DNA of 64,000 nt from Kondoa subrosea (lineage: Eukaryota). The stretch is from NCBI GenBank assembly GCA_039545335.1, contig BCIN01000011.1, positions 248,001 to 312,000 on the forward strand. The letters run 5' to 3'. The position numbers and the translations under genes are program-made. Under the pieces are notes generated by a model. The model saw only the letters and a list, made by a program, of their open reading frames with translations. It was not told where the DNA came from and did not search any database. Positions 8,652 to 59,400 of the stretch are shown here, one piece after another (position 1 is the first letter of the stretch; the number at the start of each line of letters is the position of its first letter).

Positions 8652-11600
8652 ATGGGCCAGTAAGTCGCTGTATACCACATGCATACGAATTCAGTATCTC
8701 ATTATATATCAACAGCACTCGACCTCGGTATAATGCCAAAGGCAGAGGAGCAGCACTAACTTCAAAGAAAACCAAATCCAAGACTGCTCAAACACAAGAC
8801 TTTGATTCCAATGCAGCTATCATTGATCCTGATGTACAAGCTAAACGTAGAGCTGAGTTACTTGCTGCCAATAGTGCAGCTTCAGGTGAACAAGAGCAAT
8901 CTCAAGGCAAAATGTCCAAGAAGAAGAAAAAGAGGTTAGATAGCTATATTGAGAAGAAATTGAAGCAAGAGCGGAGGGTTCAATTACTTAAAGAGCTAGG
9001 GTAGGTTTGATTTGGCTATACAGTCTATGCAAAGATTCGCTTACGTAATTAATATGAAATAGTGAAAATCAAGCTGCTTTTACAAACAATCTGGATCTTG
9101 TCTCTTCTGCTACTCTTGGCTCAAAGGATAACCGAACAGCTCAAGAAAAACTAGATCAGAAAGCGAATTTGGCTACGAGGAAAGATCAAAGGTTGAAAGA
9201 TCTAGTACAAAGCAAGACAGCTAAAGGCTATCATTCGGATGAGTCTATTAGTAGTGAAGGCGAAGATGAAGAAAGTTCTGCTAGACCTACTCCACCTCAA
9301 GCTTCTACCAGTACTGTACCTCTCAAGGCTACTTCTACGATCAAAGCGAATCCTTCTGCTCCTGCGGTCGGAAGTGGTCTCAAAAGATCAGCGGATGGTC
9401 AATTACCTGTGCCAATAGTAGTCAAGCGAAGGAAAGTGCGGTCAGCCTGGGGAAAAGTAGACATACCTGTGAGTCCTTTTCACTCAGACTTGTGTATTCA
9501 AGTTCAACAGTCGCTGAACCACAGGAAAACACATACGATATGAACGAAGATGGAGAGATGGAATCTGATTTCGATTCCTCGGATTCTGCTAATGATTCAG
9601 ATGAAGAGGGATCGTTGGACATTCTACGAGAAGCACTGAGGATCAAGGCTGCTCAAGCTGCTGGCTTACAGCCTAGTATACCGAAATTCGCTGTGCAAGG
9701 TGAAGAGGAAGAAGAGGAATGGCATGGAATACAAGACGATGCATCTGCTGAGGAAGATCCAGTTGAGGACCAGCAAACAGCCGACAATGAGATCAACAGT
9801 CAAGAAGTTGAAGAAGACGAAGAGGGATCGGAGAAATCAAGCGAAGAAGAAGAAGAAGAACGCAAGCCGACACGCAAGAAGGGTTCCTTTGCAGCTTGGG
9901 CGCAACAAGAACGAGATCGCTTGGAAGGATTTGACGCGCCTTCTCACTCCAATCTCCTCGAGAATCCTCCCGCTTCTGCCCGAACAGTCAAACCTGCTGC
10001 TGTCAAAACTGCTTTAGCTGAAGGCCCTTTAGGCGAAACCTTTGTCGCACCTAAAGCTTCTCTCGCTCTTCCAGTGGACGGCAAATCACCTAAAACCAAC
10101 AATGTTGTTACTGTCAATCGACCAGAGGAAATTCAAGAAGCTAGATTGAAGCTACCTATTCTAGCAGAAGAAGACAACATCATGCATGCTGTTCGACATC
10201 ACCCTGTTGTTGTATTGTGTGGTGAAACCGGTAGCGGTAAAACGACTCAAGTACCTCAGTTCCTTTACGAAGCCGGCTTTGCTTCATCTGACGAAAATCC
10301 AGGGATGATTGGAATTACTCAACCTAGAAGAGTTGCAGCTCTTTCAATGGCTAAAAGAGTAGCTCAAGAATTAGCTCTTTCGCCTGTGAATTCGACTGTA
10401 GCTCATCAAATTCGTTACGATGTCACTACCTCTGCTTCAACCAAAATCAAATTCATGACTGATGGTGTTCTACTAAGAGAAATGGCTGGTGATTTCCTAT
10501 TGAGCAAGTATAGCGTTCTATGTGTGGATGAAGCACATGAACGTTCAGTCAATACCGATGTTCTGCTTGGTGTATTGAGTAGAGTGGTAAAACTGCGAGA
10601 AGAGATGTGGAGAAAGAAGGAGGGCAATACCAAAGTGAGTCGTCGTCTAAATACTGTAGCAACTTAAGCACCGAACTAATGTGTGCGTGTTCTTTACAGC
10701 CTTTGAGATTGATCATCATGTCCGCTACTCTTCGGCTTACCGATTTCTTATCCAATACTACTCTCTTTCCAACCAAACCACAAGTTATCAATGTCACAGC
10801 GCGTCAATTCCCGGTTACAATTCATTTTGCCCGGAAAACCAAGTCAGATTACTTAGCAGAAGCTTACAAGAAAGTCAGCAAGATTCATGCTCGCCTGCCC
10901 GCTGGAGGAGTTCTTGTCTTCTTAACCGGTCAAAGTGAGATTCAGAGTCTGTGTAGAAAACTCAACAAACGATGGGGACCGAAAGCCATTCAAGATCGAA
11001 AGAGAGCAAGAGACAACATGTTCCGATCAACCAGACCTTTCGAAGTCAGAGAGGATGACGAAGAAAACTCTCAGAACACTACATCTGCAGCGATTGGCAG
11101 AGATCTAGAAGCAGAGGAAGTTGAATTGGGCGAAAGTCGTGATTTGGCACTGGATGTTGATGATGGTTTAGATCTGGACGCTGCAGATCAAGATGTCGAC
11201 GCATTAGATAGTAGTGATGATGAAGGGAGCGAGACAGCCGAAGGCGAGATGGAGGAAGAGGAAAGTGATGGTCCGTTTCCAGTCTCAGTCGTTCGTTAGT
11301 CCGTATGCTAACATCCGGACATTCATTCAGCTCCCCTTCATATCCTCCCTCTGTACTCTTTGCTTCCGACCGAGAAGCAAATGCGCGTCTTCGAAGCTGT
11401 TCCAGAAGGCGCTCGGCTTGTAGTAGTCTCAACAAACGTTGCAGAAACCTCTCTTACTATACCAGGCATCAAATATGTTGTAGATTGTGGAAGGGCAAAG
11501 GAGGTCAGTTATTCGCGGTTTCTGACTAAAAAAGTCTGATTTCGCCGAGTGCTGGACAGCGCAAGCACAATCTCTCTACTGGCATGCAGTCTTTCGAAGT

Positions 11601-15029: not shown

Positions 15030-17874
15030 ATGAAAGACCCAATCATCTCTTACGATTTAGAGTCGCTCTTGCGATGGGAGGCAGCAGCTACTCTGCTGAT
15101 TATCGCGTTGATTCTACCTGCTGTGAAACGATATCTCAAAGTCTTGCGTTTGAGAAGAACACTACCTCGTATGTCAAGAGCCTCTTCAGTAGCAACAACC
15201 TTCGCTCATATCTACTACTTGTTATTTGTCATAAGCTGGTCCTCATCCTTGGCCCTTAGTGGGGAACACTCTTAATTTACCTAAGAACAAACCTTGGGTT
15301 TATTTTGAAAGGCTAAGCAAGGATTACAATTCGCCTATCGTTACAGTTTGGTTAGGTAGTAAACCTACTGTTTGGTTGAATGACGCTTGGGTTGCCGATG
15401 AGTTATTGAACAAGAGGGCTGCCATCTATTCCTCGTACGTGATGTCCTGACTAGATAGAGTATGGCTGAGTGTGTGTACAGTCGACCTGAACTTATCGTT
15501 TTCCGTGATTTGGGTACCGGTCCAGGCAATATCATTTCGATGCGATACGATTCACGTTGGAGAGATATGCGTAAAGTCACACATCATGGTCCGTCGAAGA
15601 TTCACCTTCGTCCCGGGGACAGTATTTTGATTGCCAAATTTGCAGGCGTGGGAATGCAGCAGACGAGATCTTACAGAAGTATCCAAGATAACGAGTCCAA
15701 GCAAATCCCATACGTGCGTTCCAATGTACCAAAAGGCAAACTAGTCTTACCTGTCGAACAGGATATCATGCGCGATCCGAAGCATTATGTCGTAAGTCTG
15801 CGCAAATGCACTAGTGAATGCGGTCATGAATTAATGCGCTTGCTATGGAATTGTAGGCTCATCTTGAGCGATATGCAACAAGGTACATTCGATCGCGCTA
15901 ATCTCACTACGCACCGCTAAAAAATCATTTCTCAGTGTTGTTTCGATTATTGGGTTTGGAAGAAGATTGCAGACCATCGAGTAAGTCATGTCATTCGTGG
16001 TAACCAAATCAACACTGAAGAGATTCTTAGCGACCCAATTATCAGCGAGGTTCTACATATTATGATGCTTGCCGGCGAGCTGAATGTGCCATCGGCTGTC
16101 CGTAAACATTCTCGCTTGCGCAGACTATGCTCACAATACCTATACACAGTCGATGCCTATGTTGATGGTAAATTCACAGCTCTCAGGTCAGATGGCAGCT
16201 GATATCTTGCAGGAAACGTTCCCTATTCTGGCTAAAGCACCAAATTGGGTTCCGTGGAAAACCAAAACTCGCAATCGCCGAAAAGGTGTCTCGTTCTTCT
16301 ACGCTTTGGCTAAAGAAGCAGCGGAAGAGAATCCAAATGAAAATACTTGCAAGACTCTATTCGGCTCGCACATTGACAATTTTAAGATGAGCAAGAGGGA
16401 GGCAGGTTAGTTTTTGCAGAAATCATTCTTGTTCTATGCTGAACAGTGTACTCGATAAGCTAACATCGGCGGGAACCTTTTCGGAGGTGATTTGCTATCT
16501 GCTTTGACAGCGATCGCTGAAAACATTACTGAAACTCTGATCTTCAGCTGGCGCGGAAACATCAAGCAATACTCTCATCACTTTCATACTCGCTTGTGTT
16601 GCTTTTCCCGAGACTTTACCTCGGGCATGGGAAGAGCTAGACAAGGTTGTCGGACATGAACGTAGTCCAACTTTCGAAGATCAAGAATCATTACCATATA
16701 TCAGTGAGCTGCTTTCGAACACACAGATTCCGCGCGCCTGACCAAGTATGCAGATGCTTTTGTCACGGAGGTGTTCCGCTGGCGAGCGACGGCTAGTTAG
16801 TTGTAAATCTTCGGACGTTTCTGTAATGCTCACATGTACGCCAGCGCTTTCCGGTCAACCTCATGCAACAATACAGGAAGATGTTTGGGCAAGCCGGATT
16901 GTTCTTGTTCTGACTCAAGCTGATTCATGGCCTATACAGAATGGCTATGTTTTCCCTAAAGATTGCTGGGTACAGGCGAATCTTTGGGCTATTCATCGAC
17001 ATCCTCGAGAGTTCCCTGGTAGGTTTCGCCTATCCGTTCGCAGCGTATTGCTGACCTTCACTTTCGCCAGATCCCGATAGATTCAATCCTGCAAGGCATC
17101 TAGACCCTAATCGTCCTGCTTATCCCAATACTGATGGGTACAATACATTGTAAGTGCCTAGTCTCAAACCTACTTTGATTTCGCTGATCCAATGCTTTGT
17201 CAGCGGGTAAGCGCTTCTACTGCTGTCTATTTGCACATGGCTGACCATACAAAAGCTACGGACGTAGAATTTGCGCAGGAAAAGGTGAGCTTGTAGCACG
17301 ATCATTATAGATATCCGGACTGATGGCTCGACTAGCTCTGGCCGAGCAAGGGATCTTCATCGTATCTTGCAATCCAGAACCTCGGAAGACTGGTCACTGA
17401 CTGTGCTTATAGACCTGTGCGCGTCTGCTGTGGTCTTTCGTGCGCCCTTTCCCCCCGTAAAATACTAAGCTAAATAGTACCTCAGAACATTACAAAAGAA
17501 CTCGATAGCAACGGACAACCAATACCTGTAGATGTGCGTGTATGGTTATCATCTGTTATTTCACAACGCTGATCGCTAGCAGATCTTTGCCTACACCAAT
17601 GGCTTGAATATTGTTGGTCTGGCACAATCTGTTTTGCATGGATCTGACATCTATCTTAGCGGCCGGAAGAGTTCCCAGCTCGATTCATTGTTCGCTCAGA
17701 AGCAATCAAGGCCACTATTGAGCGAGAAGCGAAAGAAGCTCTGGCGGAAATGGAGCGATTCAAGTAAGCTTTACGCCGAAGAAGAGACTTAGCTGATTCT
17801 CTGGCAGCGTTCCGACGAAGTACCGTCTGTCTGACATGGGCACAAAGCATAAAATTGAGGCTGACCTGGACTGA
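15030..17874 (+). CDS. Cytochrome P450 monooxygenase, about 23 introns (alternative stop at 17767 if the last intron is retained)
   Basis: N-terminal TM and PPGPHPWPLVGN; I-helix AGAETS; EVFR (ExxR); PDRFNP; heme motif FGYGRRICAG after splicing. Confidence 0.93.
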
Positions 17875-18723: not shown

Positions 18724-19249
18724 GATTGATACAGGTTAAGCGAGAGAACAAAAATGCGGGGTAAAGATCAAAACAACTTAAGTTAGTCACACTGGCGAGA
18801 CCCAGAACGAGCAGTGGAAGATGAGAACAGCATCTGGTGTAGAAGCAGAAATTCTCAGAGTCCCAGCCAACAGCAAGCGAAGCTAACTTGAGCTGACCCT
18901 TGGCTTCCGATGGACTGCGTTGATTTTGCAGGACGAAGCTTCAAAAGCTTGCGTTCATATACAGCTACCTGCAAGCACTCAAAATTCAAATGCTTACAAT
19001 CAACAACCAAATCTACAACTAGGCGGCATTGTGGGAAATGAAGAATGACTGCCCTTCACGTTGAATCGAAAAAGCCCTTCAGACTTCCAATTAAGCTAGA
19101 CTAGGAGTGCGCAAGAAGCGTATTAGCTATTGCTATCTCGTTGAATTGTGGTCCCTGCATTGTCGTGTAGCTGTAATCCTCAAATTTCCCTTTGTTCTCG
19201 CACTCTTGATTTGCCTTCATGTTGTTCATCGCATCTTTCCCATATTATC

Positions 19250-21265
19250 ATGGACCCGATGGCTGGTATGCCGCCAGACCCTATGGCAGGAGGAATGCCT
19301 CCTGATCCTATGGGTGGTCTTCCGCCGATGCCTGGAGAAATGCCTGTCGACCCAGGGATGAATGGACAGTCGTAAATTAACGCTCCTCCGTTCATGCACT
19401 GTCTCATTCTGCTATAGTCAGGACACGGAGGCCAATGGACCATATAAGGTCAAAGGATATCACGGAAAGCTAGTCTTTTGTATGTCTTCCTTCTCTTCCA
19501 TTTACTTAAGTTGACCATTGCTTAGGGAGTCTCGGCCCTACTACTCACAATGCTTTTGTATGGACTCTGTTAGGGTCTGCTACCTTCCTGCTCGCTATAG
19601 CTGTTCTTGGAACTCCTCAAATCAAGGCAATTGCGTTCACTGAAGGCCGCATACCTGGAACGCAAAGCTCAATCTATATTGGATGGTACGGAACTTGCAT
19701 GTAGATCATTTTCATGTCGATGCAATCAGTAGCTGATAGTTGAGCAGCTTCGACGAAGCTACGGACTGGGCGACTGTAAACCGAACTCCCTTGCCGCAGT
19801 CGCATATGATCTGATTGCTGTACCCAGTGCACTCCACCTGCTTATCCTCTGTCGATAGCCAACTTTGGTACTATAGGCGGAAGACTGGAGGAAGTAGCAA
19901 AGATCTATGACAAGTCCGCGAACAGAGCGTTGGCTTTCAATGCTGTCGCTGCATTCTTCTCCTTTGTCGCTGCCATCTCTCATCGTATAGTTCGGTGAGC
20001 TGCTCCTGCCTATACATAGCTGAGATTGAGCTTTCGACAAAGGAACCATGCACCTTTTTATGTTACATTATTTGCTTTCGTCCTTGCTATAGCAGCTTTC
20101 GCGACCGATGTGAGTCTGCTGATTTTGAAGTCGATGATGCTGACATTAGCACAGGCATTCATCTTCTACCCTACTGTCGCCCAATTGAAAGACAAAGCAG
20201 GTCTCGAGGCAAATCTCGGCTTAGCTTTCTCCGCTGTGGGTATCGCTGTACCATGTCTTTTAGTTTGCTGCTTCTTCAGCTATTCGCGAGCTGTCAAAGC
20301 GCAAGTGCGCCCGCGGACAAACGAGCACAGAGATGATGCTAATTTATAATACAGCTCAATTGGCCGACAAAAGATCCTGATCCTGATCCAATCCCTCAAG
20401 CACCAATGCAACAGAGTATGGGAGGTGCTGGGCCTGGAATGGATCCGATGATGGGTGCAGGAGCGTGAGCCAAAGTTCATCGGCAGCCATAATCTTCTAA
20501 ATATTGAGAAATGTTGCTGCAGACCACCAGGAATGCCAGGAATGGATCCAATGGGAGGGTCAGTTCTTCTTGTTGTCGCATTCTCTCACACTAATACATT
20601 CTTGTCGCAGAGGAGCACCGTGAGACATCGAATCTCATCCCATATAAAAGAAACCTGATAATAGCTCAACAGACCAGGAGGAGATCCCTTTGGGGCGCCA
20701 CCAGGAGGAGGAGTGTAAGCCTGTTTTCCCTTCATCATCTTAATACCAGTTTTTGCTCGCGTGCTCGGGCTGAGGTTGGAAACGCTCGAATCTGAATTCT
20801 GCCTAATACAATATGGTGATCTCATACATTGTTTCTATACAGGCCCGGAGCAGATTCATTTGGTGCACCTCCAGGAGCGTGAGTGACTTATCTTTGCCTT
20901 CTTCATGTTCCGGCAAGAAGATCTTCAGATATGAAACTTATTTACTCTGCACACCATACTGACGCTCTGATCTTGTATAGGCCGCCCGGTGGGGATCCAT
21001 TTGGAGCACCGCCTGGAGGACCGTAAGTCATCATTCTCTGCCTCATCTAAGCTGTCTATGTCGATACTCATATCGTCCCATAGACCTGGCGCAGATCCAT
21101 TTGGCGCACCGCCAGCAGGTGGACCACCTCCGTCAGTTGTTTCTGATGTCTTCCTGCTGAATTTGGCTCGCAGCTGACCCGTGCTCGCACAGAGGAGCCG
21201 ATCCTTTTGCAATGCCTCCGCCTGGAGGTGCACCGCCAGGAGGAGCAGCACCACCTCCTTTCTAA
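19250..21265 (+). CDS. SUR7/PalI-family four-TM protein with Gly/Pro DPM/DPF repeat termini
   Basis: TM1 then loop motif IGWYGTC..CTPPAY typical of PalI/Sur7; three further hydrophobic helices; many short introns; repeat tail ends PPPF*. Confidence 0.8.
20523..21265 (+). repeat. Exon-encoded tandem peptide repeat (P)G[GA]D[PS]FGAPP
   Basis: Repeat-bearing exons at 20673-20714, 20843-20878, 20981-21022, 21084-21131 and 21193-; related GMDPMGG exon 20523-20558; 9-nt exon 20611-20619. Confidence 0.85.
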
Positions 21266-21593
21266 TCTTCTGGCATTCAAGCTCCCTTTCAAGAGTTTGG
21301 ACAAATATTGCTCCCTGTTTTTGTTCATCGCATACTGCATCCTTCGTTGTACAAATGCATACACACACTTCTTATATCATTTGGCTGCCCTTAGACCCAC
21401 AATAGCCATTTGTCGATGCATGGTTTAGGTAAGAGGCAAGAGACAATTTAAAAGACTTATTATGATATTGATATACGCATACAAAACGGAAATAGCAATG
21501 AAAGTCCGTGTGAGAGCCCTACTTCCTTCCTCTACTTCGCTTGCGTATGGCAACAGGCTAAGCAATCTGATATTTGAAATGAAGCGAGACCGA

Positions 21594-27461: not shown

Positions 27462-28772
27462 ATGAAATGTAAGTCTTGCGGTTGGATCACATACGCGCTG
27501 GTACTAATATGGGAACGTGTCTCTGTCTGTAGTTCTCGACAACCTTCCCGAATTAGATTTGTTGTCTTCTGCTCTGTCCTACGCTTCGCCCTCTCTTAAA
27601 GTCACTACGCGGATTGAAGCCTACAGCTGCAAACCAGTATCGCGCGAAAAGAAGCTATACAAGGCTCTTGAGCAAGACTTGGTCTCCGACTTGGAATTTT
27701 CCGTCGCCGGTTCGCCTCCTGAAGATCACGATGCTCAAGTAGGAAGTGCATTTGGTCCACTGGACAAGCGAGAATCGAGAAAAACGCTCTACCATTTGAT
27801 CGGCACGCTCAATCAAGCTTTCCCAGATTTCGACTTCAGTGCTGTTCGGGCGGACGAATTCACTCGTGAACCTTCTGCTCGGTCAGTTCTTTCTTCGTTA
27901 TCTACAGCACTTAATCATCTTCGAGCCTCTGCTGCAACTACCTCGAACACCAATTCAGTCTATCGCTCCTTCTCATCCTTTTCTTCTTCACCTGCTGCCA
28001 ATAACAATATTACACCTCAACCAGACAATGGCTTTCCCTACGAGAATAACGCCCCAGGGTCATATGATACACCTACTCATCCCTTTTTGCGCCAAATCTT
28101 GGATCCGATTGTCGATTTAAGCGAATGCGAAGTATACTCTTACGCACCTGATATCGATTCCGATCCACATGCAGCCGAATCAGAAATGGGATCAGTCGCT
28201 CCAAGTGAAGTAGGGGATGATACAAGTAGTTCTAGAAGAACGGAAAGTGAAGATGGACATTGGCCAATGGAGGGTTTCGAAAGCGTCCCGCCTAGTCCTA
28301 CTACTATGAGGAAGTTGAGAAGTGGTAAATCATACCCTTCTAGTCCTGGTCAATCTTTCACTAGAAGGAATGTTGAAGGAATGGGTGCCGGTAGAATGGC
28401 TTTGAGGGATAGGAGCAGATCGAACACGCCTAGTATCTTTGAGCAAGATGCTGCTAGCTCAGGCTTACTTTGGTCGTGCGTCTTCTTTCTTGTCTGTCTT
28501 CAAGAGTTAGAGCTCACTTTGAAATTTACAGATGCAATTACTTCTTTTACAACAAGGTCAAGAAGCGCATCCTCTTCATCTCTCATACTATGAAACGAGT
28601 CGTGCCTCAACAAGTCCCAGATCGAACACTACCTCTTTCAGCTTACGCTCATGCTCGATTAAGCGATGGCAACCTCTACAATTCGCCCTTCACTCGTACT
28701 AGGTCCCGATCTTCTGGTGTACCGCTATATGGGATGGAGGAAGATGGCAAGACGGTCAAAAGGGTCAAGTGA
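27462..28772 (+). CDS. MAF1: RNA polymerase III repressor Maf1
   Basis: MKFL (7-nt first exon), RIEAYSCK, LIGTLNQAFPDFDFS, CEVYSYAPDIDSDP, LWS..YFFYNKVKKRILF. Confidence 0.93.
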
Positions 28773-41438: not shown

Positions 41439-44400
41439 ATGGCTATTGATACCAAGAAGCGATCTGCCAATACCAATGACTCTTCAGCGTCCAAAGCAAA
41501 GAAGCCGCGATTGAGCGAGTCTGCAGCAGCAACATCGTCGACAAAACCAAATTTCAATTCTCTCATTTCTACTCAAGAGACTGATTTTCCTCGAGGCGGT
41601 GGTACTTCGTTGTCACAAGTTGAAGTCAAAGAAGCTAGAGCTGAAGCGGCGAAAGATTTGTTCGATGTGTCTACTGCTGCTAACAAGAAAAAACGGACTG
41701 CTAGCGATGCTTCGAAAGCGCCTGCTGATGGTGTACTGCCAAAGCGCAAGAAATTCAACAATGACAAGAAGAAGGGAAAGAATAATCCAGACTTGATCAA
41801 AAAACCAGTCAACCCGGATCAGATTCGAGTAGAGCATCTCAACTACAAGGTGAGACTAGACTATAGTTTCCGCTTATCATAAGGATATCTCTTATACGTG
41901 TCATATAGCGTCTTACTGAAGGCACTAATGTTCTAGCCCAAATCATCTCCATTCGCGCATTAGAACTGATAGTCAGCTTACCTAACCAACTTCTCGCTCA
42001 TATTCCTATTACTGCTATTTCTTCTTACTTCACACAATCTCTCGAATCGAATACGACAGCCAAATCAAATGCGTCACAATCAGATGAAGAGGAATCTTCA
42101 GACGAAGAAGAAGACGATGATGTACCTGATCTCTCATCCATGTTCCAAATCGGTCAACTTTTGAACGCTCAAGTGACATCCTCTAAAACAACAGATGTAG
42201 CGAGAAAGACTCTTCATCAATCCCAAAAAGCAGACGAGCAATACAGATTATCGAGAAGAGTCGCTTTAACTCTTGATCCTGCGATTTGTTACTCAAAGAT
42301 AAAGAAATCTGATCTGGTTCACGGAATGGTACTCTACAACGCTGTGGTGAAAAGTATAGAAGATAATGGTTATTTGTTGGATTTGGCTGTTGAGGGAGTG
42401 ACGGCTTTCCTCACCTTTGATCAAGCTAAGAAAGCCAATGAAGGTCGGTCTTTCGACTTGATTGACATGTGCAAGGTCTGACCGAGTCTGATATGATGAC
42501 AGATCGCTCCTTTACTATTGGTCAGCTTGTTCCGATCAAGATTCTCAAGATGTCTGGTAACGGCCGGACATGTACTGTGTCTGCACTACAAACGGATGTA
42601 GAGAATTCAGTGGTGAGTCTACCTTACTTGCAAACTAGAACATCGCTGAAGGGTTCCATCAGCTCACAAACGCTCCTTCCGTCGATGCAATCCTTCCTAT
42701 GCTTCTCGTCTCTTGCTTAATTACCGCTCTTACTCCATCCGGTCTCAATGTCAAGTTCCTCGGTTTCTTCGATGGCACAATCGATCTTTACCACTTACCG
42801 CTCAAAAATACTTTATCCAAAGATCTCTCCAAACATTACAAGATTGGTCAAAAGCTCAAAGCTAGAGTATTGTGGTCATTGAACAACTCTGCTTCACTCA
42901 ACGCGAGCGAGAAAACAATTGCTCTGTCTTGTTTACCTCATTTAGTCACACCTTTGACAATGAAAGCAAATCAAGCTGAAATCAAAAACGCATTCCCTGT
43001 GGGTATGATTTTGCAAAGTGTGAAAGTATCAAGAGTGGAGAGCGAGTTTGGGTTGGTTTGTGAGATCCTCGGTCCGAATGAAGGTGATCCTAGTGTACCT
43101 GCTTTTGTGCATGTTTGTCTTTTCTCTCTCATTGCTTTTACTTCAACATTTCTGATGTTAGCCACACGAGTAGTTATCGAAAGTCTCGGATGAACACTTA
43201 CAATCCATACCAGCTTCAAGCGCAGGTGGGAAATGGTCCGAAGGAACAATGCACCCTGCTCGAGTTATTGGGTTTGCAGATGTAGATGGCTTGGTTCAAC
43301 TTTCTTTCCAGCCTTCTGTATTAGAACAAAGGTTCTTGAAAGTAGAAGATGTCAAAATTGGTGAAGTAGTAAAGGTGGGAACGAGATGTATTTCGGCACA
43401 TGAGGTTTCGCTCATTTCATGACATCTCGAAACACAGGCGACTGTCAAAGGACTTACGGAAAATGCTCTGTTCTTGAGTATTGCTGGCAGTGTGGACGGT
43501 TTGGTTTGGGCAAATCATTTCTCAGATATCAAGCTAAAATATCCTGAACGCAAGTTCAAGATCGGCAGCGTTATCAAAGCAAGGGTGAGCACGCATATTC
43601 CACTTATGAGACACTGTCATAAGCTGAATTGATGCGTCCGCAGATCTTTTCCGCCGATCCCGAGAAGTTCAGAGTCGCTTTAACACTCAAGAAATCACTT
43701 CTGACCTCTGATTTACCTGTCTTGACAAGTATAGAAGAAGCTCAAGTTGGTCAAGATCTGGACGCTGTGGTCAGCAAAGTCATGGATAAAGGCTTGTTCA
43801 TCGAGCTCTTTGGTGGCTTGAGAGCTTTCGTTCCGATTGCCGAAGCATCGTAAGTGCTGCATCTCGTCTGAAGAATGCTACTGACGTGGTGTGTACAGAG
43901 ATGAATACCTGAAAACGCTTGAGGGCCATTTTGCTGTTGGCAATGCTCTCCGTGTGCGACTTACGAAAGTCGACGTGCCTAACAAGCAACTTATGGCAAG
44001 TGTACGTAAAGCTATGACCACTGCACCTGTAGCAAGTACCTCTGCCACTGAAGATGGACCTATAATCAGCGTCAACGATTTGCGAGTCGGTCAGACATGT
44101 ACAGCTATCGTCAAAGAAATCCATAAATCAAATTACCTACTCGCTTTACAACCTTCTTCCGCTAAAGCGCTTCTATCTTTCAAAGCTATTGCAAAACAGA
44201 AAGAAATCACGCAAGATAAAGCCTCAACGATTTATTCTGTTGGTGAAATTCTGGAAGATCTCGTTCTGGTGTCGAAGAATGAAGAAAGATCTTTGGCGAT
44301 CCTCGGTTTCCACATTAATACTGCGCCAACGAAGAAAACAGAGCCTTTGCCTACTTCAATCAGCGCTGGAATAGATTTCAATGCTGTCTCAGTTGGCCAG

Positions 44401-46739
44401 CAGTTCTCAGGTCGTGTCAGTGGCAGAACTCCGAATGGCTTTACAATTCAATTAGCTCGGAATCTCAAAGGTCGCGTTCATCTGACTGACTCGTCAGATG
44501 ATTATGGTCTGGTGGATGCTTCTTTCTTACCCGATAAGACCATGGTAGAGTGCAAAGTTATCAATCTTGATCTGGATCATAAAAGATTGGATCTTTCGCT
44601 GCGATCTTCTGTGGTCGAGTCCGACTCAGCTCTACCGCCCAAAGATCCTGTGATCGGAGGACTAGATGATCTGGTAGTGGGTCAAACCATTCGAGGATTT
44701 GTCAAGAATATTGCCGAGAACGGCTTGTTTGTTTCGCTCGGAAAAGACGTGACAGCTCGAGTGCAGATCAAAGTGAGTGATCACACACGCCCTAATTTTA
44801 TCGCTGAGACAATGTGTGCTTAGGAACTGTTTGATGACTTCGTACAAGATTGGAAAGCCAAATTCTCCCCAGGGCAACTTGTAGAGGGCAAGGTTGCTAA
44901 GTAAGCAGACACATATCTGACCGATACACACACTGATGCCTTGTACAAAGAATTGATCCTCTACGAAATCAGGTCGAGCTCACCTTGCGCAAGAAGTCGA
45001 GTCCTAAGCCCAAAGAAGAAAAGACTGTCGAAAGCCTGCAAGATTATGCTGTGGATCAACAAGTTCAGGCAATCATCAAGAATATCCAGCCTTTTGGCGC
45101 GTTCTTGCGCATTAAAGGTAGCCAGATCAGCGGTTTATGTCACAAAACAGAGGTATGTCCGCGCTTTCACAGCAAGACAACGCTAGATATGCTATTCTTC
45201 TTCTTCAGATTGCTGATGAAGCGGGCGACAATTGGGAATCTCTGGTACAGAAGGGTGAAGAAGTTCGCGCGGTCATAACGCAGATTGACACCGAAAAGAA
45301 GCGAATATCGTTTTCCATGAAGGCATCAAAGTTGGGAGGTACCGATGAGGCTGCAGAGGAAGATAAGTTTGAAATTTCGGAAGAAGCAGAAGATGAGAGT
45401 GAAGAAGGCTCCGAGGATGAAGTAGAAATTTTTCTCGGCAAAGACCCAGCCGATGACGAAGCTGACTCAGAAGAAGAGGTCGATGGCATGGACGTAGATG
45501 ACAACGCTATGCAGAGCATTGTATGTGGTCTTGAATACTGCCAAAGTCTGCGTTGCTGATTCGCAGCAGTCGGCTACAATGGGATCTCACAACGTGCCAG
45601 CACTTTCTGTCGGGCAATCTTTTGACTGGAAGGGTCTATCAGCAACAAGCAAGCAAAGTACTGCGGACAATGAATCGGTTCTCTCGGAAGATGAAGATGA
45701 AGGAGGATTGTCGAAGCCTAGCAACAAAAAAGCAGCTCGCTTTTCAGCGATAGAAGACAAAACAGGGGAGATGGCCTCCGATGCACCAACTTCTGAAGCC
45801 GAATTCGAGCGATTGCTACTTGGTTCTGCAAACTCTTCCTTCTTGTGGATCCAATACATGTCTTTTTTCATGCAACAGTCCGATCTAGTCAAAGCTCGGC
45901 AGATCGCTCAGCGAGCTCTGCAGACCATCAGTTACCGCGAAGAGGATGAGAAACGAAATGTTTGGCTTGCTATACTTAATCTTGAGAATTCCTTTGGCAC
46001 CGAAGAGTCGCTGGAAGACGCCTTCAAGAATGCAACGCAATCGACTGAGCCGAAACATATGCATCTAAGCTTCATCCAAATTCTGGAAAATGCTGGAAAA
46101 ATCAAGGTATCTGTGACGTCTCTTGCTGTAATTCGTAATGCTCAAAATCTGTGTTTTACAGGAAGCTGAAGATGTCTTCGAAAGGTTGATCAAGAAGTTT
46201 AGCCAGAGTTCCAAAGTTTGGACGATTTATGGGCAGTTTCTGTTTGCGCAGAATCGACCAGAAGATGCCAGAACGCTCCTACCGCGTAGTCTTAAATCGC
46301 TACCCAAGCGAAAGCGTGAGTTTGATCTACAAGCTTACTGCTTTCATTGAACCAATTTTCGGCGGCAGATGTCAAGACGATTACCAAGTTTGCCTTGCTT
46401 GAATTCAAGACTGGCGACGCGGAACGCGGTCGAACGATATTCTCTGGCATCATCGACACTTATCCCAAGAAGTTGGATCTGCTGTCAATTTACATAGACC
46501 AGGAGGCCAAGATTGGTAATATGTCAGCAGTAGAGCAGCTCGTTGAAAAAGGCTTGGAGCAGAAGTTGTCCACTAGTACGTTCTCTATAGTTTGACTGCA
46601 CACATTACCTCATTCGGCTGTTACAGAAAATGCCAAGTTCCTGCTTAAGAAGTGGCTTAAGATTGCCAAAGATGAAGGTGACGAGACAATGGTCGCGAAG
46701 GTCACAGCACGAGCTAAAGAGTATGTGAATGGGCAATAA
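41439..46739 (+). CDS. RRP5: rRNA biogenesis protein Rrp5 (S1 repeats + HAT repeats)
   Basis: ETDFPRGGG, RVEHLNYKRL, multiple S1 repeats, FERLLLGSANSSFLWIQYM, FALLEFKTGDAERGRTIF. Confidence 0.95.
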
Positions 46740-49800: not shown

Positions 49801-51967
49801 TCATCATATGAAGCTTGTTCAGCAGCTTTGACTTGATGGGGATATGGAAGTGCGGCAGGAGGATCAGGCGAAAGTGAGCGAGCAGTTGTGACTTCGGCTG
49901 GTGGTTGAACAGGTCTGCGATATTGCTGTGATTCATCCACAGGAGACTTGGATCTGTTGCCATCTTGTGCAATAGGCGATTTAGATCTGACAAGCTCATC
50001 CCCTTCTCTTCTTGGTCTGGCAGGGGGAACATCACGATTTATGTCTTTTTGCGGAGGAGTAGAATAGGATTGTTGCAAATCAGCAGCTACAGGCAAGCCA
50101 TTGCTTAGAGGTATTGTGCCATTACTTCTTACAGGCGTTTCTGTTTGCATGGCTTGACCGAAGCTGGAACTAGGAGCTTGAGGTTGCACACCTAGACCTT
50201 TGGTCGGCGAAGCCGCTCGAGTGCGCACAGTCTCTTCCTGCGGAGCCGGAAGCGGAGATTGAGGAGGAGGAGCGGTATTATTTGACACTTTGCGATTGTT
50301 GGCAGCTTGAGAGTTTCGATTTGCATCAGGTGGGTATTTTATCTTGGCTGTTCGTTCAGACATCACTCGTCAGCGATAGTGATTCAAGTACCGATGAACT
50401 GACCCGTATCCAATATGTGGACCATGTGAGTATCATCTGTTCGCTTCGCAGTATAGCTTTCTCCTCCAAGAACGAAAACTTTGTTCTGCCATGAAGCCAT
50501 TGCATGACCTGATCGGCCTGAAGGAGCAGGGCCCATATTTTGGAACATATACCATCTTTGATCTACCATACTGCTTCAGCATATTAATCAGATAAACTTC
50601 ATGCGGAACTCACTCGTAATCTTGAAGGCAGCTAGATCTTCGAGATCTTTGCCATCAACACCTCTTCCACCGAAGACGTACATCACATCATCGACGAGAG
50701 TAGCGGAATGACCTTCTCTAGGAACAGGGATGTAGCCAATGCAGGATAATTCAGTCCAAGTTTGTGTGTTGGTATCGTATTGCCAAGTATCGTTATAATG
50801 GTATTGTCCATCTGTCCCACCAAAGACGTATATGTTGTCACCGAAAGTAATGATTGTGTGACCTGTTCGTTTGGGTGGTGAAGTGCTATCCGAAGTAGGC
50901 TGAAGTTCCGTCCAATGAGCGTTTCCAGCTTTTACTGTGCACAACCACCTGGGTAAGTTCGAATGAACTTTAAGTGTAACGGCTACGCACATTTCTGCAA
51001 ATCAAAGGACCACATGTCATTCAAGAAGCTCCCATCATCGCTCTGACCGCCAAAGATATAGAACTTGCTTCCGACCATAGCAGCAGCATGTCCATATCTT
51101 CCTTCAGGAGCAGGTCCAGCAATCTTGACTCTAGTCCATTCATGGGTGCCTGCGATTTCGTAGACAATCAGCTTCTCATCTTACCTCCGAAGCAAGAAAT
51201 GTAAACTCACTCAGGTTGAGCAAGTATAAACCATCATCTTGAGCTTGACTGGGATCGATTTTGGTATCACCACCCCAAACGATCAATACATTGCCAACAC
51301 CAACACTAGCGTGACCAACTCTTGGACCAGGTACTTCTCCTCTAGTTTCCACTAATCCGACATTTATACTACCGGGAGGTGGTATTTGACCATTGACGAG
51401 TGGAACAGAAGGAGAAGGAGTAGGATTTGGAACACCTTGCAAGACGTATAAATCGTTTCGGACTACATCTTTAACCAAACCGCCAAAAATGTATAGATCG
51501 GCAGTTGGACCTTTGGAAATGGAATTGACTGAATGACCATATCTAGGAAAAGGAGGTGGGGATATTGTGTTGGAAGGGGATTGAGGTCTAGAATCGGCTA
51601 AGGTAGGCGGAAGGTAGTTTAACACTCTTTGTGACCAGGGATAGATAACGGTTGAGGGAGGTTTGTTAGGTCCGCTACTGGGAGTATTCGAGCGTGGACC
51701 ATCAGGCTTATTAGGACCATTGAGAACTGGCCCTTTGGCAATTGGCGGTCCTCGCTGTTGTTGCAAATTAGGAGGAGCTGAATGACCAAGCGAGTTTGGC
51801 GGTTGCTGTGAGCCTTGAACTTGCTGGTGAATAGAAGGCTGAGGACCTTGAGCGCCTTGAGAAGCGCTAAGCCTGACAGTGCCTTGACTTGAAGGAGGAG
51901 GAAATTCAGCTTTATTAATTGTTGGTGGACTATTGGTATCCTTCTTCTTCGATTTAAAGAAGCTCAT
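46841..51967 (-). CDS. KEL1: Kelch-repeat + coiled-coil cell-polarity protein (Kel1/Tea1 family); N-terminus may extend to ~52460
   Basis: YPWSQR, PFPRYGHS, GPRVGHASVGVGNVLIVWGGDT, GYIPVPREGHSATLVDDVMYVFGGR, PSGRSGHAM kelch blades; ~690-aa coiled-coil exon. Confidence 0.88.
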
Positions 51968-53505
51968 GATGCCTCTAGATCGCTTCTGTTCAGGTGAAGA
52001 TTCAGAATGCCTTCTTGCTCTTGTCCGACGCGATTCTGGTTCTTCTTCGAAAACGGAAACTTGAGTAGGTGGTGGTAGTGGTGCTCTATTTCCAGGAAAG
52101 GAGAACTCGGGTCTGGAAGGAGGATGTTGTTCAGTTGGAGACGGACTGGCTGAGCCAGGTATAGATGGAAGTATAAGGGTTGTGTGATCGTTAGCTCGTG
52201 CAGAATTGGCTACAGGCGGTCCTTGCAAATGAGGATGAGGCCGAAGGATTTGCGCGACTCCCGATGAAGCTTGACTGGAATCAGAGAGCCTCTGACTTTT
52301 AGGCGTGCCAGCAAGTAAAGAGCTTAAGGAACGAGATCTTCTGAGCCAATTGCGGGATCTTGAAGAACGGCTTGAAGCTACAGAAGAGTCGGATTGCTTC
52401 CTTGCGTGTCGTTGAGAATCCAGAGCGACCTTCAAATCAAAGCTTGCAAATGAAGCCCTGCAATGTTGTGAAATCGAATATAGCTATTTCAAAGTTGCAT
52501 GTGGGCGGGCAGGCTAGCAAATTTATAAGGAGGGTATCACGCTTTGGCAAAGAGGTATGTCTGATGTCCAGCAGCAGGTCAAGTGTGTTGTTAGAAAACA
52601 CACGAATTCGAAGACAGGAGCGAGCGTTGAACAAAGTCGTTTTTTGCTTCTAGTACAGCAAAGGGTCGTAAGGCGTGATCGTAAAGGGAGGGCAGCGAGT
52701 CTCCTTGAGCTGCGAGCAAACTCAAAGTGGAGGGCTTAGAACAAGCAGGCGCGAAGTCAATATTCGGGAAGTCGGTAATTCCTCTGTATAGGTTCGTCTA
52801 TGCAACACTATGCTGCCCGTGTGTTCTTATGCGAGTCCACTCTCTCAGCTGAACCGAGGCAAAGAAAATGTACCTTGAGCAACTCGACTATCCGTCGCGT
52901 GATCAAAGGATGTTCCAGACTTCCAGTGAGTAGCCTCTCTTTCACTTTGCTTTTCGAGAGCTCAGGATGCAGTGACGCGTTTTCTAGACCAGTTCTGCTG
53001 CATAGTTGAAAGCGGATCACATGCACCTTTGGGGATAAGAGCAATGCTATTGCGTTTGGAGTTCAGCAACCGCCTGTACATCAACAAGCTTTGATGGTAG
53101 ACCGCACAGAGCATATAGAAAGGTTCAGCTACATGACATTACTGTCGATATAGATCGAATGCTTCTGGCAATTCCGACGTGCAAGCATGGTGCTGTGTCT
53201 GATCAAGATACGAGTGCGAACAAGAGATACAAGACAAGAACAGAGCAGAGAATTGTCAGAACTCTCGCTGACTCTTGAGAGACAGCCAAGAGTGGCAGGA
53301 TTGGTCAAGAAGATTGACTCTGCTAGCGGATCCAGCCCAAGTCCTATACGATCACATCACTGCAGATTGCGCGAATGTCTGAGAGGACCTTTGCTGCAGC
53401 CAAGACGACAAAGAGCATAAAAGGTGTTTCCGTTTGATTGACCGAACGCGCTTCTTGCAGATCCCACCACTTTCACAGACAAGCACAACAGCAGACTACG
53501 ATCCA

Positions 53506-56460: not shown

Positions 56461-59400
56461 TCACCGCACCGCAAGCCAATGTAATACAGACAGTCCCAAC
56501 AGCAGAAGATTTACCAATGTCGGTATTTGATAGGCGAATCTTACACCGCATAGCAAAGTCCAGCTCGCTATAATGGTCATGCTGTGCAGCACAATCTGGC
56601 CAGCTCTTGAGCTACTTGGTATTCAGCGCCAAGCTCCTTGTGAAGAGAAATGCGGACAAACATACTTTTCATGCTTGACCGGAAACACATCTCCTCCTTT
56701 TTGACCAGCATGGACCGCTTCATACCACAACAAGAATCCAAGTACAGGAAAGATGTTGTGATCCGAAGAGAAAGGTTTCCACCATCCTGCTGATAGATTG
56801 CGGATCCAGACTACTAATGTTGGTGCTTGAATAGGTACGATCAGTAAAAGAAGCAGTAAGATGGAGAAGTGGTAAGGTGTTGAGGGATCGGTTACTAGTA
56901 GAGATAGAAGAGCCAAGACAAGGAAAGCGAATTGACTAGGCGCAAAGAAGAAGACAAAGAATAGTAAAGCCAGAACAGATGTCAATCTTCGAGTAGAATT
57001 TGGTGCATCGCTTGTCGATAGAGCACTAATATGCAATCAGCTCCATCCTTTGTGAGATGCGAGATGCTAGCAATCTACCTTGCAACAATAGGCAGAAGTC
57101 TTGCTAGATACAAGCGGCTAGATTGTACCGAGGTCGAAACAGCGAAAATCAAATATGCCAGCAAAGCGACCACCATAGCAGACATCATGAAGATTAACGG
57201 AGCCAGAATAGCGAAGATGATCCGATTAGTGCCCAAAAGAATACTCTGTAGCCAATTACTTCTCGGAAAGATTTGAGCTGCTATGGCTTGAAGAATAGCT
57301 AAGGTGAAGAGTGAGCAAGACCAGACAGGTAATCGAGTTCGCATGAAGATTATCCATCCAGTGAAGAAAGAAGGCATTGTGCCTGCGAGCGTAAACATGA
57401 GACCATACTTTCGACAAAAGAGACAGCTCACCTGTTCTCATGAACTCCTTGCTCTGTTCTCTCAATATCAACAGCACTAAAGCAATAGGCCAAGCAACAA
57501 AGACAATTCGGTAATGCATTAAAACAGTCTTAGCTGTTTCCCAACAAGCTATCGAAAGGGTCAAAGAAGTAATTGTTGCACACTCAGGATCTTGATATAA
57601 TTGCAGTTGCAGAGTTGAAGAAGTCAATGCAGCGATAAAAGGAGCATTGCCGTGTAGGTGTATGTTAGCCGATAAAAAGTTTGGAAAGTAATGAGCTTCG
57701 AAGTGAGATGGAGTGCTTGCTTTCAGCAGAGGGGCAAATACAGCTATATGATTTTATCAATATCGATGTAATATGGCCTCGCAGTACTTACGTTGACATT
57801 TAGATGATCTTTCTCTCTGCGAGTCTAAACGATAAACGACAAGAGATGATGCCAAATCTGTGAAACTCCAAGTCGAAATGAGTTGCTTTGGGATGACAGA
57901 AATCTTGTAGCCGAAAAGAAGGATCCCTGCATTAGATTTTTTAGTCGATTGCTAGGAAGGGATAGAGCTACGTACGAAATAACGATAAGTCAATTTGCGC
58001 GCTTTCTGATGCAGCGGACGTCCTTATGAAATCATCCATTCTGTTCCCAGTTATACCAAGTGAAATTCTTTTGGACTTCTCAAGCAATCCGAGAGGGACT
58101 TCCCCGACAAACATGCCTTTGTCCTGATTGCTGGTTAGCTTATCGAGAAAAGACGCAGGTAAACGAGGCAGATGTGAGAGTTCATGATATTGACAATCTT
58201 CTTGACCCTCACTTTTGCACGTCCTTAAGATGACGGTTTGGTGTGAAGACAGAAACGAGAGTTGCTGATCCTTTGCCCCATTTGTCAAGCTTAATAACTC
58301 CTTGAAGTCAGATATTGATTCCGTTATCCTTGTTTGCATCAAGTCATTCAATACCAAATGCTTCTTAGCTGCTGCTATTCTCTCAGCCAAAGGTTTCGTC
58401 TGGCCGCTTTGCCGAACATCGACCATATCCAAGAGAGCGGCGGCAATTTTCTGGCGTAATTGATCACACCATACCATAGCCACATGATCCACAGGCGAAT
58501 AAAGATCAGGTATAGAAGTGGTAAAGAGCGTAAACCCATTTTCTTCCCGTACTAGAGAATTGATCAGAGTAGCATCTGAAGAAATTTGGATATCTGCTGT
58601 TCCTCCAGAAATTGAGAAGAGAGCTACTTCTGCTAGTGGATGAGAAGCTTGAGGTTGTTGAGAGTAGGATTTCCAGTAGGCGTTGGTAAGGGAATAGAAT
58701 GCTTCCACCCCTGAATCGATCGGTGCAGGTGGATATGAATGAGGTGTACTGAGTGTAATGATGGTATTGATACTAGAGGGTTGATATCGTTTTGTGAGAA
58801 ATAGATGTCTTGCTATAATTCCACCCATGCTGTGAGCGACAATAATGACTGAAGATGGAATAGGATTCTCGGGACCGTGAATATGAGTGGAAGTTGAATG
58901 ATTGTATAGCGAAAGGATGTGATTTATTGCATCGACTGCATATTCTGATTGCTCAAACAGAGTTTCCCCATGAAATGCAGAGAAATCCTCGTTGAAATCC
59001 ACTGTAAGGCGGATCTCAGAGCCTCATTCCGTACGAGAGATGTAAACTGACGAGCAAAGAAGTCCAGATTGCGCACATAAGCGTTCCACAAGTCGTTCTT
59101 GGGTGTAGCTGGAGATTGATAGAATTGTCTTGCAGCAGCAGCAGATATTGATCTGACTTGTTTGTACGATCCAGCATTGCCAGGAATGAATAGAACAGGT
59201 ACGCCTTGCACCTGAGAGAGAGAAACAGCAGCCAACATTTCAACGAATTGCTCTATATGTCATTTGACGAGAAGTCATGCACGCCGTTTGATAGATCCAA
59301 GTCCCAGCCTGCTTCTCTATATAAGTGTAGCGAATATTTCGACGATAGCCTGCTTGGTACGCCTTCCATATGAATGTATAGAGGACTCATGTAGGCCATC

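Follow-up and report, generated by a model that had tools for sequence, protein, structure and literature searches.

How a membrane protein could come to carry a series of short, endocytic-type tripeptides, most of them on exons of their own, and what such a tail might be for, are the questions raised by a gene of the fungus Kondoa subrosea. The DNA analysed here (the window) comprises 64,000 nucleotides (nt), positions 248,001 to 312,000 of the forward strand of contig BCIN01000011.1 (assembly GCA_039545335.1), and all positions below are counted within it. An initial annotation had placed at 20354 to 21265 a tetraspan of the PalI/Sur7 kind whose tail is a cassette of same-phase mini-exons with D-P-F repeats (DPF), and had proposed that splicing might set the number of motifs available to the endocytic adaptor AP-2. 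The gene model, the repeats, the selection acting on their peptide and the family and fold of the relatives together point, with moderate confidence, to a protein with a claudin-fold membrane domain and D-P-[M/F] tails, for which an origin of the mini-exons by old duplication, constitutive splicing, a disordered and cytosolic tail and a motif array with a putative partner would be the most fitting account.

The tail is part of a single gene on the plus strand, at 19250 to 21265, which has 15 exons, 1164 nt of coding sequence and a product of 387 amino acids (Table 1). One open frame runs from an ATG at 19250 to a TAA at 21263 to 21265 across all 15 exons, and every one of the 14 introns, which measure 45 to 128 nt, opens with GT and closes with AG. 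The model was extended upstream from the exons annotated before, and the upstream exons were set by alignment to the homologues P0005, P0006 and P0007. The extent of the gene as annotated before stands for the C-terminal part and fails at the 5' side, where the ATG lies far upstream of 20354; exon 8, which had been made to begin at that base, begins one base later, at 20355. The six internal mini-exons of 36, 9, 42, 36, 42 and 48 nt (exons 9 to 14) were found where they had been claimed, with AG before and GT after each, and the peptides read from each exon are the same. Each of these exons completes a codon whose first two bases lie in the exon before it, as the claim of phase-2 flanks requires, and introns 8 to 14, all seven, are in phase 2. 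Neither an initial exon of 14 nt at 19435 nor an intron at 19820 to 19858 was kept, as the frames then failed to close and the homologues code through that stretch. Judged from its letters, the gene is real, dense in introns and fungal, probably of a basidiomycete.

Two overlapping signals may be recorded here. A match to the C/D-box RNA sR55 of Rfam at 20104 to 20155 (+) overlaps intron 6, scoring 20.7 bits where the gathering score is 35, with an E-value of 0.074; it is the sole Rfam match between 18500 and 22000 and was taken as chance. On the other strand, a stop-free frame of 148 amino acids at 20925 to 21371 (-) passes over the tail exons without recognisable features, and we ascribe it to the Gly/Pro codon content.

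The mini-exons are repeats of one another. A repeat finder that was blind to the gene model picked out exons 11 to 14: they hold a direct repeat of 35 nt in four copies, which are 77-80% identical and lie 170, 141 and 100 nt apart, and nothing comparable was returned in the introns. Compared in pairs, these exons share 78-82% identity over 34-40 nt, and a further repeat of 19 nt (family D3), 89% identical, links exon 9 with the end of exon 8. The distal C-terminal unit has 12 residues, P-G-[G/A]-D-[P/S]-F-G-A-P-P-[G/A]-G, and occurs once per symmetrical phase-2 mini-exon; its core, D-[P/S]-F-G-A-P-P, is identical across exons 11 to 14, and the tail introns each lie 1-2 codons ahead of the next P-G-[G/A]-D. 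When the six-frame translation of the whole window was searched with the pattern [PGA][PGAM]D[PS][FMW][GAM], nine matches were obtained, and all nine fall in this gene, on the plus strand and in the frames of the model.

Over a 12-codon core of exons 11 to 14, taken in all six pairs, nucleotide differences at codon positions 1, 2 and 3 number 3, 10 and 38, and the differing codon pairs are 32 synonymous versus 13 non-synonymous. With the fifth unit, that of exon 15, added, the counts become 12, 24 and 70 by codon position and 50 synonymous to 29 non-synonymous. The repeat units were picked by their peptide, which inflates the third-position bias somewhat; the skew is still large, and it follows that the peptides are under purifying selection and the mini-exons are real coding sequence. 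Third positions carry about 0.53 differences each (six pairs by 12 codons), and as about half of them differ in any one pair, the copies should be old. The introns, which had been described as dissimilar to each other, prove to be so: only 4 of 91 intron pairs exceed a z of 3, on matches of short length and never between two tail introns, and the highest z within the tail is 1.86, for introns 10 and 11. Tandem Repeats Finder (TRF) reported three tiny repeats within exons and no period of exon plus intron.

The proposal that the tail arose by exon duplication is in keeping with these results, since the repeats on the exons of the tail are paralogous to one another and their introns occupy equivalent places, which is what duplication predicts. 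The tail is most likely the relic of an old tandem duplication of exon and intron together. A unit of exon plus intron would have been duplicated in tandem; the introns and the synonymous sites would since have been randomised, while the peptide would have been kept by selection. The equal phase of the introns and the exon lengths in multiples of three need no further cause, because duplication yields both automatically. For orthologous DNA, two scans of metagenome contigs were made with alignments of the homologues, and of the 166 and 243 matched stretches none was confirmed by tblastn.

The membrane domain is of a known kind. Hydropathy peaks at residues 70-98, 162-180, 191-209 and 229-247 mark four transmembrane (TM) segments, and the four long helices in a model of the homologue P0007 likewise bear out the four-TM claim. 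The N- and the C-terminus are both predicted to be cytosolic, from the basic residues before TM1 and after TM4. Outer loop 1 contains I-G-W-x-G-x-C, followed at a distance of about 10 residues by a second Cys, both kept in P0005, P0006, P0007 and P0008, and such a cysteine motif (G-W-x-G-x-C ... C in outer loop 1) is a hallmark of the SUR7/PalI family. Across 11 rows, C55 and P61 (numbered as in P0007) hardly vary.

A profile search through 1.84 billion representatives returned 10 proteins at E<=0.001, each of them a fragment whose translation runs on into introns; in P0005, which seems to be partly spliced, two introns are still read and some are missing. P0005 and P0006, which share 46-50% identity with the read-through query, bear the precomputed label PF06687 (SUR7/PalI). 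When the nine homologues P0005 to P0013 were scanned, PF06687 was the top Pfam match for three, P0005 (25.2 bits, E 1.5e-5), P0006 (25.7 bits, E 1e-5) and P0007 (21.7 bits, E 1.8e-4), each a fragment that misses one TM segment or part of one, and these scores, though significant as E-values, all stay below the curated cut-off of 29.6 bits; in the other six fragments the SUR7 match was absent. No SUR7 match was obtained for single exons of the window or for its one-frame read-through, in which stops were written as X. Scanning with the family profile, which had been proposed as a check, thus speaks for the assignment only through the relatives, below the cut-off, and not through the window itself. 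With exon 3 alone as query, none of 31 candidates among longer proteins was significant; P0009 as query matched only itself and P0006; and a search of the PDB by sequence profile had no matches at E<=10.

At the level of structure, the AlphaFold model of P0007 combines its helices with a four-stranded outer sheet. Its predicted local distance difference test (pLDDT) is 70-93 in the TM blocks and 59.8 on average, the mean being lowered by non-coding read-through at the end. Foldseek, queried with this model, returned nearly only TARP, claudin, GSG1L and GARLH proteins among its top 50, the best at an E-value of 7.4e-3 and none at 1e-3. Comparison by VIA with TARP, claudin and MP20 chains gave Z of 10.4-12.3, with a root-mean-square deviation (rmsd) of 3.1-3.9 over 114-137 residues, where a Z under about 13 may stand for a generic helical bundle. 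The nearest Atlas clusters belong to the SUR7/PalI family, mostly of Basidiomycota (score 0.91, with 25 of 30 hits carrying that family set), which is a lead and not proof. The protein is read, from its sequence and the model of its relative, as a divergent SUR7/PalI claudin-like tetraspan of a thinly sampled branch. The PalI/Sur7 identity first given to it is thus kept as a likeness, for which the PF06687 matches of the homologues, the four TM segments and, within the limits of the scores above, the modelled fold speak, and is narrowed to a divergent member.

The membrane domain is set between two unusual tails. The C-terminal one has 131 amino acids (32% Pro, 26% Gly and 14% Ala), with DPM at residues 286 and 301, DPF at 312, 339, 352 and 367 and DSF at 326. 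The N-terminus on exon 1, which the initial annotation did not mention, is rich in Pro, Gly and Met and holds three DPM units. Units of D-P-[M/F] therefore build both ends and are split by introns only at the C-terminus, and both tails are presumably disordered, as their Pro/Gly-rich composition would suggest. The relatives share the frame of this design: the N-terminus of P0005 is shorter, rich in M, P, G and D, and has the same basic stretch K-G-Y-x-G-K-x-V-F before TM1, and the junction S-Y-S-R-x-x-K-x-Q / N-W-P after TM4 is common to them. The N-W-P start of exon 8 is shared by P0009 and P0007, and their similarity ends at the expected intron position. The units beyond it vary. P0007 shows G-G-E-G-G-M-P units in its visible tail; that of P0009 contains DPM units and is cut short at the position of intron 8 in the present gene; and that of P0011 is short, made of Gly, Met, Ala and Pro, and, in the manner of exon 15 here, turns Pro-rich before an A-F end, with neither DPM nor G-G-E-G-G-M-P units.

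What the kept peptide would do can be approached through known readers of such motifs. DPF arrays are endocytic ligands, read by the alpha and beta2 appendages of AP-2 and by the mu homology domain (muHD) of FCHo/SGIP1, and the present tail does hold several DP[FW] tripeptides in a region predicted to be disordered and cytosolic. The muHD takes consecutive DPF pairs with a linker of 2-5 residues (PMC4731787), whereas the DPF linkers here are of 10-12 residues (13-15 from start to start). Dikarya, moreover, are without the beta2 appendage (PMC5338921), and the alpha appendage therefore remains as the named candidate. That the core D-[P/S]-F-G-A-P-P is kept whole favours a specific reader over mere composition. 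We suggest that the peptide may form a multivalent array of short linear motifs which recruits a cytosolic partner to the membrane protein, with the alpha-adaptin appendage of AP-2 as the best named candidate; the protein would then be endocytic cargo or an organiser. The general part of this proposal, a motif array with some partner, is held with the confidence stated at the outset, while its adaptor-binding part is tentative, and on the present analysis we would sooner doubt than expect it.

As regards splicing, the claim that any subset of exons 9 to 14 can be dropped in frame is arithmetically correct: all are multiples of three between phase-2 introns, and the split codons (GC, GG, CC or GT followed by A or G) never form a stop. 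The 9-nt exon 10 is in this sense optional, as exon 9 joined straight to exon 11 stays in frame by the predicted junctions. In most of the tail introns, which measure 52-128 nt, a CTRAY-like site lies 10-18 nt before the 3' end; in the introns of 52 and 53 nt that flank exon 10, the branch-like site reads CTAAT or CTGAT and lies 14-16 nt before that end. Exon skipping is comparatively low in fungi; among the species studied, intron retention exceeded it in all but one, and animals alone show an enrichment of frame-preserving skipping (PMC6142364). Short introns with signals of their own, together with the low level of fungal skipping, make constitutive splicing the default. The tail introns would be spliced constitutively by intron definition, and their equal phases would be a by-product of duplication and not a device. 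When retained, introns 8, 10, 11, 12 and 13 (five of the seven tail introns) bring a stop (TGA or TAA) immediately behind the split codon. Introns 3 and 5 also give an immediate stop on retention, and such stops are probably generic for phase-2 introns with GTGA or GTAA donors.

Against this background the alternatives can be weighed. That the layout is put to use, with skipping or the five stop-giving introns producing graded tails of 0 to 4 DPF and hence a capture by AP-2 alpha that is tuned by splicing, seems improbable to us. In its regulated form, skipping under pH, stress or mating conditions would set the DPF number and with it the avidity for AP-2. The in-frame, stop-free arithmetic of exons 9 to 14 allows this without saying more, and the avidity of DPF arrays for endocytic modules rises with motif number (PMC4731787). 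Fungal skipping is low, however, with no enrichment of frame-preserving events outside animals (PMC6142364); introns as short as these, with their own splice and branch-like signals, suit recognition intron by intron; and the equal phase follows from duplication anyway, so that regulated skipping appears quite unlikely. Scarcely more can be expected of a second form, in which retention of intron 8, 10, 11, 12 or 13 gives a clean, shorter tail with fewer DPF units, and we rate it at a shade below the first. The stop one codon into each of these introns would serve it well, as would the predominance of retention over skipping in nearly all species studied (PMC6142364), but the stops are generic to phase-2 GTGA/GTAA donors and occur alike in introns 3 and 5. 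Transcripts that retain introns and meet early stops are, as a rule, degraded, which also counts against a ladder of truncations. As the introns keep no shared sequence, they may also have been gained independently at equivalent sites, which counts against the duplication proposed here. The boldest doubt, that the blocks are coding-like by chance or belong to a decayed, dead gene, could point to the sparse family (the 10 proteins mentioned above), but it is hardly credible beside an uninterrupted frame over 15 exons with canonical splice sites, the strong third-position bias and homologues at 46-50% identity.

A serious rival to the motif array remains, namely that the tail works by composition. 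It would be a low-complexity region of stickers (Met and Phe) and spacers (Pro and Gly), which clusters the protein or acts as a flexible spacer, and its DPF would have no specific reader, being a local variant of a family-wide Gly/Met/Pro tail. The high content of Pro, Gly and Ala agrees with this, as do the different units that the relatives use in their Gly/Met/Pro tails and the coexistence of DPM and DPF units at both ends, which we count in its favour. Composition alone, however, would tolerate far more change than is found, given a 12-residue unit that is nearly intact despite strong third-position divergence and a core that is the same in exons 11 to 14; we regard this explanation as rather unlikely, though one to be kept in view. 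The preferred reading, that of an old, constitutively spliced array with a partner, has points against it as well. The protein contains five DPM in all, mixed with DPF, which does not suit a DPF-specific partner, and we know of no appendage that takes DPM as a ligand. Conservation of DPF, proposed as a check, was not borne out, as the visible tails of the relatives hold no DPF; these fragments stop at introns, and their distal exons are invisible. The muHD spacing and the lost beta2 appendage narrow the choice of readers, and the family scores below the cut-off, the missing match for the window itself and the modest Z values described above count on the same side, as does the possibility of independent intron gain. 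The splice junctions are predicted from DNA, those of the 9-nt exon 10 with the least certainty; a look-up of sequencing runs for 19200 to 21400 returned none of RNA. The age and conservation of the cassette are judged from this single gene.

Table 1. Exons of the tetraspan gene and long open reading frames (ORFs) with Pfam matches elsewhere in the window.
Feature	Positions	Strand	Description
Exon 1	19250..19368	+	Start codon; N-terminal Pro/Gly/Met-rich tail, predicted cytosolic; three DPM units
Exon 2	19418..19479	+	Basic juxtamembrane stretch ahead of TM1; aligns to P0005 residues ~25-37
Exon 3	19526..19700	+	TM1 (hydropathy peak at residues 70-88); outer loop 1 begins, including the conserved I-G-W-x-G-x-C
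Exon 4, 28 nt	19748..19775	+	Middle of outer loop 1; P0005, P0006 and P0007 read the loop uninterrupted
Exon 5	19828..19994	+	Second loop cysteine, C-T-P-P stretch, TM2
Exon 6	20043..20109	+	TM3
Exon 7	20155..20304	+	TM4, then conserved S-Y-S-R-A-V-K-A-Q closing the membrane domain
Exon 8	20355..20464	+	Start of C-terminal tail: N-W-P, D-P-D-P-D-P, first C-terminal DPM; phase-0 intron 5', phase-2 intron 3'
Exon 9, 36 nt, phase 2-2	20523..20558	+	DPM unit
Exon 10, 9 nt, phase 2-2	20611..20619	+	Micro-exon, 3 codons; flanks AG and GTGAGA
Exon 11, 42 nt, phase 2-2	20673..20714	+	DPF repeat 1, repeat family D1
Exon 12, 36 nt, phase 2-2	20843..20878	+	DSF variant repeat, repeat family D1
Exon 13, 42 nt, phase 2-2	20981..21022	+	DPF repeat 2, repeat family D1
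Exon 14, 48 nt, phase 2-2	21084..21131	+	DPF repeat 3, repeat family D1
Exon 15	21193..21265	+	DPF repeat 4, Pro-rich end, terminal Phe, TAA stop
Long ORFs with Pfam matches	9288-10667 (+), 27511-28593 (+), 43888-44823 (+), 51179-52483 (-), 57971-59023 (-)		DEAD helicase, Maf1, Rrp5 S1, Kelch, PGAP1

The surroundings are those of nuclear DNA from an intron-rich eukaryote, with a GC content of 42-49% throughout the window. The Pfam matches of the long ORFs (a DEAD helicase, Maf1, the S1 domains of Rrp5, Kelch repeats and PGAP1) are ordinary eukaryotic housekeeping functions, and five other long ORFs of the window have no Pfam match at E<=1e-5. Upstream lies a P450-like gene (noted at 17150 to 17255, +), one exon of which weakly matches the p450 family of Pfam (E 0.0037, 16.5 bits, below the cut-off). 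The canonical haem signature of a P450 is F-G-x-G-x-R-x-C-x-G, and this gene reads F-G-Y-G-R-R-I-C-A-G only if a 3-nt exon, CGG at 17204 to 17206, between introns of 54 and 49 nt, is spliced in; without it, the Phe comes one residue too near the Cys. As the haem motif requires this exon, very small exons are credible in this genome.

How does the gene compare with systems already described? With the SUR7/PalI family (PF06687; Sur7, Fmp45, PalI/Rim9, Mug33 and the Cryptococcus Tsh proteins) it has in common the four TM segments and the cysteine-bearing outer loop 1, and the likeness extends to the top Pfam match of its relatives and, at the modest scores given above, to the claudin-like model of a homologue, the family being termed claudin-like in the title of one paper (PMC7178836). 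An intracellular C-terminal tail, such as is predicted here, has been described for Mug33, a member of the family that cycles through endocytic and exocytic compartments (PMC3113670). The present protein differs from the family in its sub-cut-off scores, its very small and distinct branch, the DPM/DPF tails at both ends and the mini-exon repeats. The DPF arrays of Eps15, Eps15R and Dab2 are alike in having several DPF within a Gly/Pro/Ala-rich and presumably disordered region. Here, in contrast, there are only four DPF and one DSF, 10-12 residues apart and mixed with DPM, their binding is putative, and the motifs sit on an integral membrane protein, whereas Eps15, Eps15R and Dab2 are soluble scaffolds.

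Further likenesses lie outside these families. SCAMPs are tetraspans whose cytosolic NPF repeats are ligands of endocytic proteins with EH domains, and they resemble the present protein as four-TM carriers of repeated endocytic-type tripeptides on a cytosolic tail; they belong to another fold family, their motif is NPF, and we know of no layout of one repeat per exon among them. The 54-bp exons of fibrillar collagens and the PEVK exons of titin carry short peptide repeats on small symmetrical exons, for which exon duplication is the accepted account, and in titin exon skipping tunes the repeat number. Those are animal genes with exon definition and long introns, unlike the fungal gene at hand with its tail introns of 52-128 nt. 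In a search of the full-text literature no paper brought Sur7 and DPF together, this being the one search made for the architecture.

Should DPF and DPM be true adaptor ligands, a membrane protein of the Sur7/PalI kind would bring its own multivalent endocytic signal, and adaptor-driven traffic would be linked to a family that has been associated with static membrane domains and the sensing of pH. Should the splicing-tuned reading also be true, there would be a switch of endocytic valency where functional frame-preserving splicing is thought rare. Apart from either, the gene is a clean case of peptide repeats that still sit singly on their exons although the introns diverged long ago, and could help in studying the spread of short linear motifs through exon duplication in intron-rich fungi and the handling of exons of 9 nt (or, in the gene next to it, of 3 nt). 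The tetraspan kind, the DPF arrays and the genes with one repeat per exon are each known, and it is their combination in a fungal tetraspan that seems new.

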